64,000 nt of DNA from Camelus dromedarius (lineage: Eukaryota): the NCBI RefSeq assembly GCF_036321535.1, contig NC_087436.1, positions 58,530,001 through 58,594,000 on the forward strand, given 5' to 3'. Of this stretch, positions 3,431 to 15,250 are shown one piece after another. Positions within the stretch are counted from its first letter, which is position 1. Each line of letters starts with the position of its first letter. The position numbers were made by a program, and so were the translations under genes. Under the pieces are notes generated by a model. The model was not told where the DNA came from. It saw only the letters and a program-made list of their open reading frames with translations, and did no database searches.

Positions 3431-3979
3431 AACAACATTATTTGCATCTCCAGAACCTGACACAATGCCTATATATAATTGTATTTCAATTTGTGTTGGG
3501 CAGATGGAAGTAACTTACCCTCTTAGTTTGGATAATAGCTGACATAACATTCTTATGACACTCTCTTATGTACATACATTGTTGATAATCTAGCTTTTCT
3601 TTGGCTCAAGTTTTCATATACTCATAAGTAAGTTTGCATTTCACATCATTAATGCAATTTTAATATGACCATTCTAAATCACTCATTTCCAATGTATATT
3701 ATGCTTAAAGGGCTTCTAAAATATTACTTATTCAAGGTAAAAATTATTCAATAATTATTCAATTATTCAAGGTAAAAATCTGGCCTAGTATTATAGATGC
3801 TAACAATTTAGAGAATGGAGAATAAATTTTAAAAGTTAAACACTGGTTTAACAGAAAAATAAGTTTAACAGAAAAAAGGGACTTGAAGTTGGGAGTGAAA
3901 TATAGAAAAAAAATATAGAAGCAAAAATCTGAAAAATTCTTAAACAACAAAAAAAAAGGAGAAATTATTTTTTAGAAAA

Positions 3980-4590
3980 GGATTGATTCCATATCTTGGT
4001 TATTGTAAATAATCCTGCTATGAACACTGGGGTACATGAATATTTTTGAATTACAGTTTTCACCAGATTCATGTCCAGGAGTGGAATTGCTGGATCACAT
4101 GGTAATTCTATTTTTAGTTTTTTGAGAAACCTCCATACTGTTCTCCATAGTGGCTGTACCAACAGTCCAAAGGGGTTCTTTTTTCTCCACCCACTCTCCA
4201 GCAGTTTTTATTTGTAGACTTTAATGATGGCCATTCTGACCAGTGTGAGATGATAGTTCATTGTAGTTTTGATTTGCTTTTCTATTTTTTCATGTGCCTA
4301 TTGTCCATCTGTATGTATTCTTTGGAGAAATGCCTATTTAGGTCTTCTGCTGCCCATTTTTTTATTGGGTTGTTTGCTTTTTGTTGTTGTTCAGTTGTGT
4401 GAGCTGTTTGTATATTTTGGAAATAAGGTCCTACTGTTATAGCACAGGGAACTATATTAAATATTCTGTAATAAACTTTAAAGGAAAATATGAAAATGAA
4501 TATATAACTATAACTAAATGACTTTGCTGTACACTAGAAACTAACATTATAAGTCAACTGTACTTCAATTGAAAAAATTATTAAAAAGCA
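3980..4590. mobile_element. 5'-inverted, truncated LINE-1 (antisense ORF2 end 3980-~4425 joined to sense 3' UTR ~4422-4590)
   Basis: Minus ORF 3965-4162 ([28 protein letters not shown]...) is the L1 ORF2 C-terminus. From ~4422 the + strand reads the cetartiodactyl L1 3' UTR 'aaggtcctactgttatagcacagggaactatatt...tacttcaatt' plus an A-rich tail. Confidence 0.88.
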
Positions 4591-5949
4591 AAAGAAAGGA
4601 AAATAAATTTAAGTTCATTCAAAAATCCTTAAAGTCAATGAAAATCTAAATGATAAAGAGAATACAAAGTGTTTTATGAGGATGTCAACATTTGCCATAC
4701 AGGATCTTTCTTTTGTCTATATTGTCTATTGCCGGATAGATGTAAATTAATGAAATTTGCAATTCTGTGTGTTTATTATCACATTTATAATTCAAGAATT
4801 ATGCAAATGTGTTAGACGCTTTTCACATTAGTTGAAATCAGTAGAAAACTGAAATGATCTCTGTATTAACATCTCACAATCTCATTATTTATTCTATTGG
4901 CACCTAATTTAATACTAAGACCAAACAAAAGGACATGTCAAACAAGATTTTCAACAAATAAGATTATGCTGTCTTATAAACTGCAAATGAACATTTAATT
5001 GGATACTTCTAAAAGAGAAGATCCAATTAGAGGAATATAAACTCTTCAATGAAGACTTGGATGAAATTACAACGAAAGTACAACATTATTCACAGCCCTA
5101 GTAGTGTTTTTCTTGCTGCTGGTGAATTATAACACCCTATGTAAATAATTTTTCTAATAGGCTTGATAATACCAATGAGCAAACAAATTAAGCAATCTGG
5201 TGAAATGACACTTTATTCCAGGATTGTGGTATGTTCCTATTTTGGCATATATGTAATACCATTTATTTCAAAATGCTGTTTAAAGAAAAGTGATTGACAT
5301 TAGTTGAGTAAAGTCTTGAGTTTGCGTATTTTCTCTCTGCCTGATATTTCCCTTACCTCCCTCTCTACTCCTTTTCTGACAAATATTCCTACTTACCTTT
5401 CAAAACTGCACTGGAGAATTTATTTCTTTGAAGCACTTCCCTTAACTTCCTATGAGAATTTGACACTTCTCTCTGATTTTAAACAAACCAATCATTTTAA
5501 TATTTATGTGCTTACATTTTTGTCTCCTATGAGACTATAAGCTCCTTGAGATCAATGATCTCATCTCTTTCATTTTGGATTCCTTGGAGCCTAACACACA
5601 CTATCAAATACTGGCTATACTGAATATGATATACTGAATTTACACATTACCTTTTTTTGAGGAGTTCTGACAGTTTTTAAACTTACAAATGGTGTTAGTG
5701 GGCATTATATTGTTTTGTTATCAAAAGAAAATAGTTAATTATCCTAATTCACCTATACTAGAAAGTGGGCAGAACAACAAGTTAATTTACCTACTAAAAC
5801 TCTTCTGCCATGGAAGGCTGTAGCTTTATCTATAACATTAAAGAGAACAGTCTTTCTCTTAACTGAACTGAGATGCTCTGGAACTTTTGTTTGAATTGGG
5901 GTTAGGATAAAAGACAATATGGTAAAAAAAAAAAAAAAAAAAAGCCTTG

Positions 5950-7950
5950 TTGTTGATATGATCTTAATGTTGCTTGTATCTGATCTCAACATTTTATCTC
6001 CAACCCTAGGTTTCCACCAGTCGTCTACAGACTCCACATGTGTTCTCTTCCTAAACTGTTATTTTTTACCAGTCAGCAATCTTTCAGATGTTGTTAGCGT
6101 GGTATAGCATAGATTTTTGCACTGAAAATTCCAGGCTCCTGTTCCCAATCTGCTTGTTTTTATGCCTGTGTTAGATTTTGTGTATCCTAATGCATGTATT
6201 GGTTCTGTTAAACTGGTTTCATTGCTATTAGAACAATTAACCTGTGGCCTAAATTCCTAATACCTAGATGCCACATCGTATGTTCTCTTAATGAACATAT
6301 TACTAGTAAAGTTCAAAGTAGAGTAAATAATTTTTTGGATGGGCCACCATAGTTTGGTTGATGATTATGTTGTTTGGCACCTCATTACATGGAGATTCAG
6401 CATAATTTAATATATTGTAATGTATTGATGGCACTATTGGATTGATGTGTGTTTTGTTATAGTATCAAAATAATTGTATCCCTTTAATACAGTTATGAAT
6501 GGTCCTATATTGTTGGGCCCATAGGAAACATTAAGTACAGATTCTATCTACATTGAAGATGGGCATATAGCTACTTGTTATATTTTACTTGGTCATGCCT
6601 CATTCCTCGTTATTGCACCATTATTTTGTTCAAGAACCATTAGTCATCTCTCCAGTGACAAAACTTAACTATTTGAGTAACCTCTGTGATACTTACATGT
6701 ATGAGAAAAGCCACGTTTATATGTTTCATAAGTTAGATTTCTTGGTACCAATGGAAGAATTCCATGGTGCCAGGGAATTCAGAATATGATAGAGAATCAA
6801 TGTAGGGTTTGAAATAGCTAGGTTATAGAATTCTGTGCCAGATGTGGCAATGGTTGTCTCGTGTATAAATTACCATAACAGAGCAGGTTAGGCCATTCTG
6901 TGACATGAAGTTTAACCTCTTTGGTATTATATTCCCATGGGAACCCCTAAATAGAGATTCTCTTTGTATGAAAGTGGAGCTAGTTGTAGTTTCTTTCAGG
7001 TACTTTTCTGGTGGACTCAGTAGGGTCCATTAAATATGTCAACTGGCATGGTGGGCATCTGTGGGGTCTGTCTGGTGGTTTTATTTTCTCTGTAGTGTAC
7101 TTTGTTTCCTCTTTCTTATAATCATAACAGGCTTCTTTACAGTCTCCTACTTGTCCTATACCCATATCCATTGCCACATGGCCAGATGATATAGTCCTTT
7201 AGATGAGGCCTCCAAGTACTAATTACATGACCTATGTGTTTCACGTTGTGGCTCTATATGTGTCATTAGAATTGTCATCTTTTGTCCTACCAGTTGGTAA
7301 AATCAACAAGCATCCTTCAAGGGTGAAGCATTGCTGCATTTCTATAAGTGCACTTTTTGGGTCTGTGTATAGAGAGAACATATAATCTCTCATTTTTTGA
7401 TATTTAGAGTATCTGAATTAGCCCCACCAGTATAGTATTTGGGAGGGAAGTGGATGATGTCACAAGTGTTGGAGTCATATCCTGACCAGAGAATGGTATT
7501 CCAGTTTGGAGAGACTGCACAACTGCAGTTGTTGGTGCTATCTGTGGAGAATCCATAGCTGCAATGAGTCTGGTATCCAGTAGTATATAACAGGCAAAAT
7601 AGTGTGGCCGGTAGGCAGCATGCTGCACCACCCATTCAGCAGTATTTATAGGGTTCAAAATGCATAGTGGGCCTATTCCTGCAAAATAGTGTCCTATACA
7701 TTTCTAATTCTTTCTAGTTGTTCTTGCTCCTGAAGGAAATCCATTACAGCCATTACTGTCAATGGAGCCCCAAGCCTAATTTCCCTGCACCACGCTAGGC
7801 TAAATATTAGGCATCTAGTAATGATGCCATATGAAAATGTGTCCAGCTATCATATATAGAGTAAACATCCATATTTTTAGTACCTACAACCAATGTTGAT
7901 ACAATAGAAGATGGTGTTTTATATACTTGAAAATTTTATAGAGACGTCAG
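5950..7950 (-). pseudogene. env: env-like gene, SU N-terminal/central part (inverted segment), many stops and frameshifts
   Basis: Lies directly downstream of IN. Cys/Trp/Pro-rich frames (WGSIDSNGCNGFPSG..KCIGHYFAGIGPLC; GGAACCLPATLFCLL..NNCSCAVSPNW; GDCKEACYDY..PHRCPPCQL) with N-glycosylation sequons (NCS, NVS, NFT, NET). The frame continues into the + segment through the duplicated junction. The start position is approximate. Confidence 0.7.
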
Positions 7951-7999
7951 ATTATTTTCTTTAATTTGATGTATTAAGCTTTTTCCTTTAGTCAGTAGT

Positions 8000-8447
8000 A
8001 GGTTTTATTATATATAAATATATGTTTATATCATTATGTTTTTTGATTAATACCTTTCCTTTTAATTTAGATTCTGGGGTTTTCTTAGTGCTAATTCTTA
8101 TTCCTGTGGGTGCTTATGATATTAATTGATTCGTAGGAGATATTTCATCCCTTCTGTACCTGCTGTTTACAGACCTTGCTGCCTCCCAGATTGCTTTCAT
8201 ACCTAGACTGTTAGTAAGCAACCTAATGTTTTGCTTGAGTAAGTCATTATACCTTTTAGTTGATTCAGAGGCAGTTGAGTTGTAGGTTAAATAGAAGTTC
8301 CAAATTATGCTGGGTCTTCTATTTTAATCTTGCATTATTTTTCCTGTGAAGTGGCTTCCCTGGTCTGATTCTGTGATGATGGGGATATTGTAGCAAGCCA
8401 CACAGATTTCCAGTACTCTAATTGGTAATTTTTTGATCACTTTCCTG
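8000..8447 (-). pseudogene. pol: Retroviral integrase catalytic-core fragment, class III type
   Basis: One frame reads CYNIPIITESDQGSHFTGKIMQD*NRRPSIIWNFYLTYNSTASESTKRYNDLLKQNIR, matching the class III pattern YGxPxxIESDQGTHFTG..QQW....I.W.FHLPYNP.AAG.IERxNGLLK. Confidence 0.9.
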
Positions 8448-8516
8448 CCATGATATAATAATCCTATTTGTGACCAATGGCAACTTACAAGATTTATCTT
8501 AAGAAACACAATAACT

Positions 8517-10392
8517 TACAAGCAACATTAAGATCACATCAACAAGAATTTACAATTTGGACTTCTAGGTATCTTACTGCAGCCAAGGGCAATGATGATG
8601 GTTTAGGGATAGAAATAGTCACTATACACCCTCACGATGATTCATGGACTACTATATCATTGAACATTCATAGACCCGCATTAGATTATCTACAATACCC
8701 ACAGCTTACACTATATAACCCATATTCACCCATTTAAAAGTTAACTGTATAACCATGGACACTATATCCTGACTTCAAGAAACAGAAAAAACATGTAAAG
8801 TAGCTAGAGAACACATTGGAAACCTAAAATATAATACTTATTATTAACCATGGTGCTATACCATGGGCTTCTATCTCATCCCTACTTCTCTGACTCCCCA
8901 AATATGGGAACCTATTGTTCATTAAACCTCTTACTGTTAGAGCCCAGTACAGTAGCATATACTCTTAAAATTCAACACACAGGATTTAGAAGCCAAATAT
9001 AGATCTTCTAATTGTGCTCAATTTTATCTATCCAATTTTATGCCTAACTTATAAAATATGCCAAAGACTGATTCATTAAAAGTAAGAAAATCCCTACAGT
9101 TTCTTGCTGAACTTATGGGGCGAATACTTGGAGGCACAATGGCAGCAGACTTTTCACAAATTCAAATTGACCAAATCACTTTGGACTTTAAAAAAAATAA
9201 TAAACAATCACAATTTAATATGCATGCGATGGCAGCTTTATTACGATTGGGCACACAGATGAGTATGATTAGCAGTGCCCTGCAAAACATAAATGATTTT
9301 CAAGCAGAAACAGGGCACTGGATGTTCTGAAGAAAGCATTTGAGAATAATTGCAAAAACAATGAAATTCTAAGAAACAATATAAAAGATGTTTGAAGATT
9401 GACTGTCAAATATTACAATTGAGGTTGGAAGGTATGTAGAATATACTTGAAGCAACAATAATCTCTAGACAAAATTGGACACCTGAAATTGCAGATAATC
9501 CAACTAGGACTAGAGTAGATAGCGCACAACCTAAAGGCTGAGATTCCTTGGGGAACAGTGAAATTAGAATTATTAGCACGTAAAGGAGGAAACACGACAC
9601 TGAGTTACCACACTTCTGTGGTTCCCCAATATCAAATGAGAGAGTAGAAACTACAGGCCATAAAAAGCCTCCTTACAATATAAGGAAAACGTGTTTCTAA
9701 GGATATGTTGGTGAAATAAAACCAAAATACCTTTATCACTACTAGTCATTTGGATATGCTTATGATACCAGTACCCGCGACTACTTTATATATACAGTAT
9801 GGAAAACTGGAACATGATAGAATCCTCTAAGCCAAAACTAACCCTAACCTATTGGAGTCAAGGATGAAATAAGGAACACAACATAACGGGATTTGTAAAA
9901 ATAGAAGAGATAATGAATGTGATAATAGAAGGAAAAAGATATTATCTGAGGTCAATAGAAGATAGAGCAACCATTAAAATAACCAGAGAAATATTTCACT
10001 TTGAGGCTCCTAAAAGTAATAAATGTAAACTATTAGAAAAATTAAGACAAGTAAAAGAACATCTGGAAGATGAGAATAATTAAGTAAAAAACAACTTTGA
10101 AAGAACTGGAAAGAGAACAAAAACATGCATTCCGTAAAATAATGATGTCATGGCACCTGAACATGTTTGTGCTTGATAGTGCTTAAGCCTGAACTCCCTG
10201 AAGCTTCATGAAAATGACTTTTCCATGGAAACGCAATTGTCAAGTAAGCTTACAAGGTTTAAGAAACTTAATTTTTGGTTTTTTGGTGATTGGATCCAAT
10301 ACCATATTAAGGAAATCTCTGTTATGCTTTTGCCAATAATATAATGAATTTATTTAACAAAGCCTGCAGTAACAAAAATAAGGGAATTAAAT
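8517..10392 (+). pseudogene. env: env-like gene, SU C-terminus + TM subunit (direct segment), degraded
   Basis: Basic cleavage-like site KVRK (9079-9090); apolar/Gly fusion-peptide-like SLQFLAELMGRILGGTMAA; helical heptad-like region; late coiled-coil-like LLEKLRQVKEHLEDENN; Trp-rich NFWFFGDWIQ (~10270-10300); hydrophobic ISVMLLPII**IYL anchor. Position is immediately upstream of the PPT/LTR. Confidence 0.78.
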
Positions 10393-10512
10393 TAAAGGAA
10401 AATTAGATTGTAAATAATGTAGAATCATGGTGAATTGATACTTTGTGAACTTAAATGTGTACAGGGCATTAGGCCCTTCAGATTAATAAGTGTATAAATT
10501 ATCTGAAATCAC

Positions 10513-10520
10513 AGGGTGGA
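10513..10520 (+). promoter_or_regulatory. Polypurine tract of the class III ERV
   Basis: 'agggtgga' + t + TG, matching the ERV-L/ERV-S type PPT-LTR junction (…GGGGTGGAC-TGT). Confidence 0.8.
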
Positions 10521-10521
10521 T

Positions 10522-11275
10522 TGTTATGTATTTGTTTGTTACCATTTCAAATCCACTTGTTTATGGCTTAAGTGAGGTTGTTTTGATCTAAGGGTGAATT
10601 TTGTCTGCCTTGGAGAGGCCCTGTCAGGATGACATTAGCAAAACTGTTGTGCTACTGAACGCTTATCAATAGGAACACATGGAGGAGCAACTATGATTTA
10701 ATGGACATCATAATTTTAAGTCCTAAATACTAAGAATTTCTGAGGATTTACTGAGAGTGTTCAGTCTGGGCATGGCTACTCTTTGCTGATCTAAACGGCT
10801 CTCCAAAGACATCAGAACAATAGCTCCTGCCCTGGCAAGGCTACTCTTTGCTGGCAGTGGTGAACGCTGTGCCGTGGCCCCTGAAGGAGATCATCTAGCC
10901 CACCAACCCTGGCACCTTCTTTGTACTAGCATCGTGCTCTAGCAACATGGGACTTTCTGTTTACGCTGGCAGCTGGAAATCAGCTCTTGTTGGCTCAGCC
11001 AACTCTCCTGAGAACAAACTCATAGAAAGGTACACCTCAACTAAATTTGGACTTTATATCTTTCAATCTCTCCTTTTCCTGGAACAATAGTGTGATTAAT
11101 CTATCATTGGGTTGGGGTATGTTATTTCTTTATTGACTTATTAAGAGTCATTATCCTGTATGCTATTAGCTTGTGAAATACTGTTATAAACAATAATTCC
11201 CACTGTGAACCTGTGTTAAATAAACTACTGGCAATGACAACCTCAGTCTCTGAGCATAATTTGCCAACCAAAACA
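10522..11275 (+). mobile_element. 3' LTR (~750 bp) of the class III ERV
   Basis: Starts TGTTATG directly after the PPT; composition shifts away from the A-rich env; internal 20-bp direct repeat; AATAAA at 11219-11224; ends ...aaaaCA at ~11275. The family is not assigned (layout recalls the MER74/LTR53/MER54 group, unverified). Confidence 0.8.
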
Positions 11276-11276
11276 A

Positions 11277-11433
11277 AGAGTAAATCCTAAGAGTCCTCTT
11301 CACAAGAGAAATACGGGTGTTAGCTGTGGTAATCATTTTACAATATATGTACATAAAGCCATCATGCTATGCACCTTAAACTTATACAGTGATGTATGTC
11401 AATTATTTCTCAGTAAAAATCAAAAAAAAAAAA
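11277..11433 (+). mobile_element. LINE-1 extreme 3' end (L1MA-type) with poly(A)
   Basis: 'gagtaaatcctaagagtcctcttcacaag...tgtggtaatcattttacaatatatg...caccttaaacttatacagtgatgtatgtcaattatttctc' then A12. Confidence 0.85.
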
Positions 11434-14780: not shown

Positions 14781-14823
14781 CAGATTAGTCAGATTTCTCC
14801 AGAGAAACAGAGCCAAGAGGATG

Positions 14824-14889
<66 letters not shown>

Positions 14890-15250
14890 ATACGGAGAGA
14901 GACTTATTTAAGAAACTGGCTCACTCATTTGTGGAAGCTTAACAAGTCCAAAATCTGCTGGGTATGCTAGCAGGCTGGAAACAAAAGTAAAACTTGCAAT
15001 TTGAGTCCAAAGGTATCTGCTAGCAGAATTTCCTCTTCTTCTTTGTAAGTCAATCTTTCCCTATGAAGCCCTTCAACTGACTGAATGAGGCCCACCCACA
15101 TTTATTGAGGCTAATTTGATTTACCCCCAAATTTACTGATTTAAATGTTAATCTCACCCAAAGATGCATCCCCAGAAACATTTATAATGTTTGATCAAAT
15201 ACCTGAGTCTTATAACCTCATTACATTGACACATAAAATTAACCATCACA
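14781..15250 (-). mobile_element. MLT2-family (ERVL) solo LTR
   Basis: 'attagtcagatttctccagagaaacagagccaa', 'ccttcaactgactgaatgaggcccacccaca', and end 'ttgacacataaaattaaccatcaca' (reverse complement of the MLT2 5' end TGTGATGGTTAATTTTATGTGTCAA). Confidence 0.92.
14827..14887. repeat. (CA)~30 microsatellite inside the MLT2 LTR
   Basis: Perfect AC run seen directly. Confidence 0.98.

Follow-up and report, generated by a model that had tools for sequence, protein, structure and literature searches.

Positions 5947-11275 of a 64,000-nucleotide stretch of the dromedary genome (Camelus dromedarius, assembly GCF_036321535.1, contig NC_087436.1, positions 58,530,001 to 58,594,000; hereafter the window) hold a 5'-truncated, degenerate, and partly inverted provirus of a class III endogenous retrovirus (ERV), and behind its polymerase gene (pol) stands the real remnant of an envelope gene (env) that is not of gamma type and that encodes a long transmembrane (TM) subunit. 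Retained are the 3' half of the integrase, the pol stop, the post-pol region, and a 755-bp 3' long terminal repeat (LTR), while gag, protease, reverse transcriptase (RT), and a 5' LTR of this copy were found nowhere within the 64-kb window. The explanation that we favor, and hold to be probable, is a dead provirus of an old, low-copy class III family that underwent a 2.57-kb inversion and whose post-pol gene would have encoded an envelope of the class I fusion-protein kind with a long TM. Mammalian class III ERVs are otherwise env-less (ERV-L, MaLR) or reported with gamma-type envs from class I viruses. A long-TM, non-gamma open reading frame (ORF) behind a spuma-like pol provides a sequence family in which one can ask for the lineage's original envelope, and whether foamy virus Env, lokiretrovirus Env, and the F proteins of paramyxo- and pneumoviruses are tied together.

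Sister copies and an ancestral reading frame behind pol

A DNA search of the 2.3-Gb assembly listed 56 matches, mostly to the LTR, and recovered many solo LTRs as well as three internal copies related to this element (contigs C25, C11, and C4). Two of these, C25 and C11, are LTR-flanked proviruses of ~8 kb each and, together with the window copy, make up the env-bearing copies in the genome. Every copy seen carries many stops and frame breaks; no copy is functional today, and the remnant has no bearing on present-day function. The distances between paired LTRs (Kimura two-parameter, 0.155 in C25 and 0.21 in C11) correspond to ages of ~35-48 million years at 2.2e-9 substitutions per site per year, a rate quoted in PMC7947760, and to greater ages at slower rates.

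The frames of the window itself matched nothing in Pfam, and the retroviral class was read from the sister copies, the sense frames of which contain RNase_H (1.7e-7, C25), RVT_1 (5.3e-11, C11), and, below Pfam's cutoff, rve (E=0.0066, C25) on the stretch aligned to window 8446-7533. Compared with solved structures, the RT piece of C11 was closest to foamy virus protease-RT (7o0h, 3.8e-20; 7kse, 2.4e-18), followed more weakly by murine leukemia virus RT (2.3e-14), Ty3 (5.6e-10), and HIV RT (2.8e-7), a class assignment that rests on a sister copy, as the window copy holds no RT; we take the labels "Pr125Pol" and "Peptidase A9" on the matched structures to denote foamy virus. The same piece gave 114 pattern matches among viral contigs, 0 of them confirmed. 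The LTR starts TGTTATG and ends AAAACA in the window, its homology to other LTR copies ending at 11275-11279, and the LTRs of C11 and C25 likewise run TGT...ACA, termini that are named as a class III feature in PMC8278194. The sense frames of C25 and C11, three in each, gave no match to a dUTPase. The integrase frame is free of stops common to all copies from 8476 to ~7990 and then meets three shared stops, so pol ends ~40 codons past the integrase core. C25 may also carry a tRNA-Ser primer site, since 3 nt past its 5' LTR 17 of 25 positions match the 3' end of a genomic tRNA-Ser(AGA), with 119 of 2000 shuffles scoring equally; the corresponding match in C11 is not significant, with 1171 of 2000 shuffles scoring as well. 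By these comparisons the family classes as class III, spuma-related, and without dUTPase, nearer to ERV-S-like groups than to ERV-L, which agrees with an earlier reading of the DNA from its letters alone (the sequence-only reading) in calling the element a class III ERV.

That reading had also proposed, between the integrase and the LTR, one degraded env frame of ~1,200 codons. Shared stops and independent homologues indicate that the 1.64 kb from 8755 to 10395 was an ORF in the family ancestor, with at least 546 codons demonstrated, and this is the part of the proposal that stood; a single long ORF over the full length was not demonstrated. In the shared-stop test, the window was aligned to C25 and C11 and, frame by frame, those window stops were counted that are also stops in every aligned copy. 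Over 9548-10400, the window has 16 stops in the env frame (the frame of 8401), 3 of them common to all copies, whereas the two alternative frames share 13 of 24 and 20 of 29. The 3 common stops of the env frame comprise the terminal stop (10393-10395) and two that fall in a stretch read locally in another frame in the window. When a single-frame reading of 8518-10395 was searched exhaustively with phmmer against 1.84 billion representatives, it added 37 matches at E<=1e-3 (15 at <=1e-10, none at <=1e-30), which are short ORF fragments of 46-187 amino acids, 36-69% identical and mapping to 8755-10371; the ten whose origin was checked belong to Logan or ENA contigs, and none bears a name. Several fragments cross intact the places where the window breaks frame (near 9313, 9785, 10086, and 10267), i.e., P0017 and P0043 near 9313 and P0032, P0019, and P0014 over 9600-9900, and thus support the frame path independently.

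The order of features along this frame was taken from two alignments, A6 and A7, in which window pieces stand beside both sister copies and natural fragments: a conserved Cys-containing stretch, a basic site (LKVRK in the window, LKGRK in many fragments), a hydrophobic Gly/Ala-rich segment, a long helix-prone region, ~250 mixed residues, a second helical region, a stretch of ~45 residues that contains Cys, a Trp-rich motif, a hydrophobic anchor, a ~12-residue tail, and the shared stop. The Gly/Ala-rich segment, 22 residues long, reaches a 19-residue Kyte-Doolittle mean of 1.90 (P0038), the membrane anchor a mean of 2.40 (P0041), and a four-residue string, LQNR or LQNI, follows the first helix. 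A tiled alignment of all in-frame pieces (A4, A5) was left unused, as MAFFT had stacked unrelated tiles. Judged from A6 and A7, hydropathy, predicted helices, and language-model neighbors, the remnant has the general layout of a class I fusion glycoprotein, with a predicted TM of ~435-445 residues that is far longer than a gamma- or beta-type TM; the ~430 codons that had been proposed after the cleavage site are borne out by shared stops and fragments. We propose that cleavage at the basic site separated a surface subunit (SU) from this TM, in which the hydrophobic fusion peptide would have led into a long helix and a middle part of ~250 residues, and these into a second helix, the Trp-rich stem, the anchor, and a short tail. 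In the live virus it would have acted as other class I fusogens do, with the fusion peptide entering the target membrane and the helical regions folding back on each other.

Neighbors in the ESM Atlas offer leads toward viral fusion glycoproteins in general. For P0043, which spans the fusion peptide and helix and fits the class I layout, they are CoV_S2 at 0.93 (188/256 features), HA, Baculo_F, and, at 0.90, a Fusion_gly cluster with that family on 23% of the cluster members. Several other results weigh against the favored explanation. The C-terminal fragment P0004 has class III fusogens as its neighbors (Monjiviricetes_fusion, rhabdovirus G, and gB; 0.91), at odds with the class I assignment, and the basic site ends in K, where furin sites usually end in R. 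AlphaFold models of P0004 and P0041, built with family alignments, reach predicted local distance difference test (pLDDT) values of 69.9 and 57.2 with only their helices confident, and Foldseek of these models against the PDB returned nothing at E<=0.001. Pfam matched no known Env in the window frames, the pieces, or 41 fragments; the PDB gave no match to a viral glycoprotein with single sequences or with profiles A2, A6, and A7; and a genome scan with PF03408 found none under a stricter filter that returned no match in any control genome either. Finally, substitutions between copies show no third-position excess and hence no trace of purifying selection, a test that is uninformative for copies decaying neutrally.

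The sister copies themselves carry some further features. In the C25 copy, env is separated from the 3' LTR by a ~526-bp insertion that has an L1-like 3' sequence (L017 3441-3965), a 384-bp single-copy sequence occupies the place of ~2 kb in the window copy (L017 5495-5878), and GT-rich simple repeats stand on both flanks. The C4 copy (L019 3541-7585) has an LTR only 2.3 kb upstream of its integrase-homologous stretch and no env-like sequence within 2.4 kb after it, which gives it a heavily deleted look. On contig C37 of the genome (G000), three LTR copies of the family lie within ~75 kb (14544758, 14604622, and 14619594; 14.54-14.62 Mb) and may be a local duplication or a cluster.

Kinship and size of the envelope

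The env remnant fits no sequence family tested, and by layout it is closest to the group of foamy virus Env, F proteins, and coronavirus spike. It could be a spumavirus-type (foamy) Env akin to paramyxo- and pneumovirus F, i.e., a gene native to the lineage that has decayed beyond the reach of sequence methods, and we hold this to be possible, if at somewhat less than an even chance. Foamy TM subunits have ~415 residues and a short tail, to be compared with ~440 residues and a short tail here, and the RT of the family is spuma-related. The virus clade, the long TM subunit, the short cytoplasmic tail, and the class I architecture are common to both. Spumavirus Env also has a leader peptide with a Trp motif and a signal-anchor, and a second furin site; here a hydrophobic segment at ~7570-7630 lies in the candidate env start or leader. 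The neighbors of P0043, CoV_S2 and Fusion_gly, are moreover grouped with foamy Env as one subclass in PMC11468914, which describes foamy Env as structurally related to F and to the coronavirus spike. On the other side, sequence similarity between the remnant and spumavirus Env was not detectable: PF03408 and PF00523 match no window frame and 0 of the 41 fragments, searches with profiles A2, A6, and A7 missed the solved chains of foamy Env and F, and the local motif likeness to foamy Env and to measles and Newcastle disease virus F is an impression. Foamy or F-type kinship is treated here as a lead only. Lokiretrovirus Env and paramyxo- and pneumovirus F (PF00523) likewise resemble the remnant in being class I fusogens that are cleaved and that carry a fusion peptide, a coiled coil, and an anchor, but the likeness is that of a language-model neighbor at 0.90, with no Pfam match here, and lokiretroviruses have a basal RT where the RT here is spuma-like. 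Their Env is F-like, and their reported hosts are lampreys, fishes, amphibians, and reptiles, mammals not being in the host list of PMC7947760.

How large this envelope was depends on a stretch that the window copy does not share with its sisters. Homology to C25 and C11 ends at 7533/7529 (at the protein level at ~7505 in C11), leaving 5979-7532 and 8517-8754 unique, ~2.2 kb with one copy of the 32-mer at the inversion junction dropped. C25 lacks the sequence from ~7533 to 8938, with a 385-bp single-copy filler unlike the window in its place, and C11 lacks ~7505 to 9548. The outside fragments P0028, P0003, and P0012 span 8755-8937, which both copies are missing, so C25 and C11 are deletion derivatives. 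They would carry different internal deletions of the SU part, and the unique 2.2 kb of the window copy would be that missing part. From its position, its composition, and the deletions in the sister copies, this is most simply how the stretch is explained. Its larger section, 5979-7532, has in the sense direction an A fraction of 0.36, an A-T skew of +0.16, and a GC content of 0.37, like pol and TM and unlike the flanks, and at both ends of the unique region the frame carries on into sequence that has support. By geometry an env could reach ~1,290 codons, and one of 1,200 codons is a hypothesis; of the ~800 codons that the sequence-only reading had placed before the cleavage site, the last ~114 (8755-9090) are backed by homologues, and the remaining ~2.2 kb, which statistics cannot tell from non-coding DNA, is not.

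A more modest gene would account for some of these observations. Here env would be ordinary to moderately large, and the unique 2.2 kb, not being one env frame, would instead hold at least one accessory ORF between pol and env, be non-coding or captured DNA, or have been inserted later, which we regard as a tentative but serious possibility, below an even chance. It would agree with the loss of homology in C25 and C11 within ~30 nt of each other (7533 and ~7505) and has a parallel in fish foamy-like ERVs, in which a 1.3-kb ORF lies between pol and env according to PMC5210030. The stretch itself also speaks for it, and against the long envelope, in several ways. Neither its DNA nor any of three protein frames had a homologue elsewhere in the genome, there was no match in Pfam (either strand) or in the PDB, and no short database protein matched its most open frame, its 99-aa ORF, or its 73-codon stretch (8519-8737) in word-index searches, which are less sensitive than exhaustive phmmer. 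The best frame has 23 stops in 563 codons, vs. ~39 expected from composition and 27 and 29 in antisense; a frameshift-tolerant stop-path over 5979-7532 has z of -1.4 to -1.6, within the range of controls, though this test against dinucleotide shuffles cannot separate even the TM ORF (-2.1 to -2.4) from controls (to -2.9). The proposed degraded frame through 5979-7532, a stretch absent from C25 and C11, thus scored no better than controls. Nor was the proposed "Cys- and sequon-rich" character of the region confirmed, the sense frames of 5979-7635 being at flank level in both Cys (2.4-3.4% vs. 2.5-4.2%) and sequons (0.7-1.4 vs. 0.2-1.3 per 100 codons). Against a smaller env stand the sense-strand composition, which matches pol and TM rather than the flanks, the single-copy state of the stretch, which is therefore not a common repeat, the demonstrable deletion in the sister copies of env sequence kept by other sources, and the size of what would be left: in the C25-type architecture, pol and the cleavage site are ~320 codons apart, which would not suffice for a leader and SU.

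With the unique stretch counted, ~850 codons would precede the cleavage site, vs. ~570 in foamy Env. In the full proposal, this env would be native to the mammalian class III (ERV-L/ERV-S) lineage and not captured. It would be a class I fusogen of foamy/F-like kind in which a TM of ~440 residues went with a leader plus SU of ~800 residues, near-complete only in the window copy. We consider this proposal possible but doubtful. If it were true, the ancestor of mammalian class III ERVs would have carried a spumavirus- or F-type Env.

The inversion and the layout of the element

The features of the element are collected in Table 1. The pol stop (~7990) and the env stop (10393) are ~3.9 kb apart; the sequence-only reading had given ~3.8 kb between integrase and LTR. 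The integrase and the LTR that it had noted were both confirmed, the integrase remnant on the minus strand at 8515-8114 by alignment to C25, C11, and C4.

Table 1 Features of the class III provirus in window coordinates (frame n: first base of the codon at a coordinate with mod 3 = n)
Feature	Position	Strand	Basis or remark
Left arm of the 32-nt inverted duplication	5947..5978		left end of inverted block; 94% complementary to 8517-8548
Copy-specific 1.55 kb ("U"); candidate SU-coding part	5979..7532	-	A-rich on the minus strand, like pol and TM
Post-pol stretch common to other copies; candidate env start/leader	7533..7989	-	hydrophobic segment at ~7570-7630
pol 3' end: C-terminal half of integrase core and short C-terminal domain	7990..8516	-	aligns with C25, C11, and C4
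Right arm of the 32-nt inverted duplication	8517..8548		start of the direct (+) part of the element
Copy-specific continuation past the junction	8549..8754	+	no homologue found; absent from C25 and C11
SU C-terminal part, with basic site LKVRK (9076-9090) at its end (putative)	8755..9090	+	fragments P0028, P0003, P0012, and others; A6
Fusion-peptide-like hydrophobic Gly/Ala-rich segment, TM N-terminus	9091..9156	+	conserved in A6; hydropathy
TM subunit remnant, ~435-445 codons	9091..10395	+	shared-stop test, copy comparison, fragments
Second helical region, like heptad repeat 2 (HR2)	10009..10170	+	AlphaFold helix 46-73 of P0004, pLDDT 66-86; A7
Trp-rich stem, membrane anchor (~10315-10356), ~12-residue tail	10276..10392	+	A2, A7; hydropathy; AlphaFold helix, pLDDT >90
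Untranslated spacer with short purine run immediately 5' of the LTR	10396..10520	+	sequence
3' LTR, 755 bp, TGT...ACA	10521..11275	+	72-83% identity to many solo copies
Ancestral frame path, window coordinates	8941-9313		frame 1
	9315-9785		frame 0
	9787-10086		frame 1
	10088-10267		frame 2
	10267-10395		frame 1

The block from 5947 to 8516 reads in the retroviral sense on the minus strand, and from 8517 the sense strand is the plus strand. The two arms that bound the block are complementary at 30 of 32 positions, and strand composition switches at the junction, in accord with the proposed inversion of the left segment; sense-strand A fractions are 0.41 in the pol part, 0.36 in 5979-7532, and 0.40 in 8938-10395, and in the flanks skew is absent. 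Of the listed public sequencing runs, 20 of 24 (8 studies) contain every 31-mer sampled from 5700-8800, and 6 of these 20 (3 studies) carry no flag as a possible assembly source, so the inverted arrangement is probably not an assembly slip. Staggered breaks followed by fill-in leave an inverted duplication at opposite ends of an inverted block. We suggest that a 2.57-kb block, from the 3' half of the integrase through the first part of the post-pol region, was inverted after integration, probably via a staggered double break that left the 32-nt inverted duplication. The inversion may be younger than the integration; the 2 mismatches in 32 nt between the arms lie below the LTR-LTR divergence, a difference that is not significant. 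One point counts against a plain inversion, which leaves the 5' truncation unexplained: the rest of the provirus was not found in the window, and with its 5' two-thirds missing a deletion or a more complex event is needed besides.

It is improbable that two separate truncated copies of the family lie here tail to tail instead, as might be argued from the absence of any further provirus part within the window and from a left flank of unique DNA that ends in a pure A21 run, because the end of one copy would have to fall at exactly 32 nt beyond where the other starts, the overlap is 94% identical vs. ~72-78% between copies (p~0.02 by a binomial estimate), and a stretch on the minus-strand part is found nowhere else in the genome. 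The A21 run, at 5924-5944, comes within 2-3 bp of the left inversion junction and does not mark the end of any repeat. L1 twin priming as the origin of the inversion was rejected, since a complete LTR closes the element at 11275 and no target-site duplication was found between the flanks (463 of 500 shuffles score equally well). As for the A-run at 11421-11433, it is part of another element, a short, 5'-truncated L1 3' end at 11324-11433 that starts 48 bp past the LTR, spans ~110 bp with an A13 tail, and matches a very abundant repeat (2093 first-look candidates) at 83-90%.

Related elements and surrounding sequence

Among class III ERVs, ERV-S/HERV-S (HERV18-LTR18), HERVL32, and HERVL66 have the most in common with the family, i.e., a spuma-related RT, TGT...ACA LTRs, no dUTPase, and an env region; the tRNA-Ser primer site of ERV-S may have a counterpart in C25. 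ERV-S is described in PMC8278194 as having associated env sequences and no identifiable dUTPase. The difference lies in the envelope, which in ERV-S, HERVL32, and HERVL66 is reported to be of class I (gamma) type and here has a TM of ~440 residues and no gamma hallmarks. In canonical ERV-L, a dUTPase follows the integrase and env is lacking; with its members HERV-L and MuERV-L the family has a class III pol and old age in common, but it has an env remnant and no dUTPase. The Xenopus class III element XtERV-S also combines a class III backbone with an env and has a tRNA-Ser primer site; its TM is gamma-like, with an immunosuppressive domain (ISD) and CX6CC, according to PMC8278194.

Gamma-type Envs have an ISD and CX6CC in a short TM of ~180-200 aa, with ~150 residues from fusion peptide to anchor. 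By eye, no CX6CC and no ISD-like block were seen in A6 and A7, and TLV_coat, GP41, Foamy_virus_ENV, and Fusion_gly were matched by 0 of the 41 scanned sequences at E<=1 and likewise by none of the window pieces, so that the earlier description of env as non-gamma holds, with no TM match to gamma or beta profiles. That a class III element captured a gamma-type ("class I ERV") env that then decayed beyond recognition, as reported for HERV-S, HERVL32, and HERVL66 and as might be read from the LQNR/LQNI string after the first helix, or from PMC4724089, in which all credible class III Envs found are of class I type, is highly improbable given ~410 residues between fusion peptide and anchor vs. ~150, no CX6CC seen in A6 and A7, 0 of 41 TLV_coat matches, and no match to the gamma TM structures in the PDB.

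The survey just cited (Vargiu et al. 2016) found every credible class III Env to be of class I type and left the class III supergroup without a known envelope of its own (PMC4724089), and a 2025 preprint repeats a class I-type Env for HERVS (bioRxiv 10.1101/2024.10.28.620668). Literature searches aimed at class III envs, which covered neither subscription journals nor repeat libraries, turned up no description of a mammalian class III ERV with a non-gamma env. The DNA of the element may already be in repeat libraries as an unnamed internal sequence.

The surrounding window is AT-rich, mammalian-type DNA with L1 debris. Two L1 ORF2-like fragments (1284-1602 and 3965-4533) lie 2.75 kb apart in direct orientation and are 77-81% identical, one of them with an 80-aa ORF typical of the L1 ORF2 C-terminus, and a (CA)n microsatellite of ~40 repeats occupies 14814-14895.

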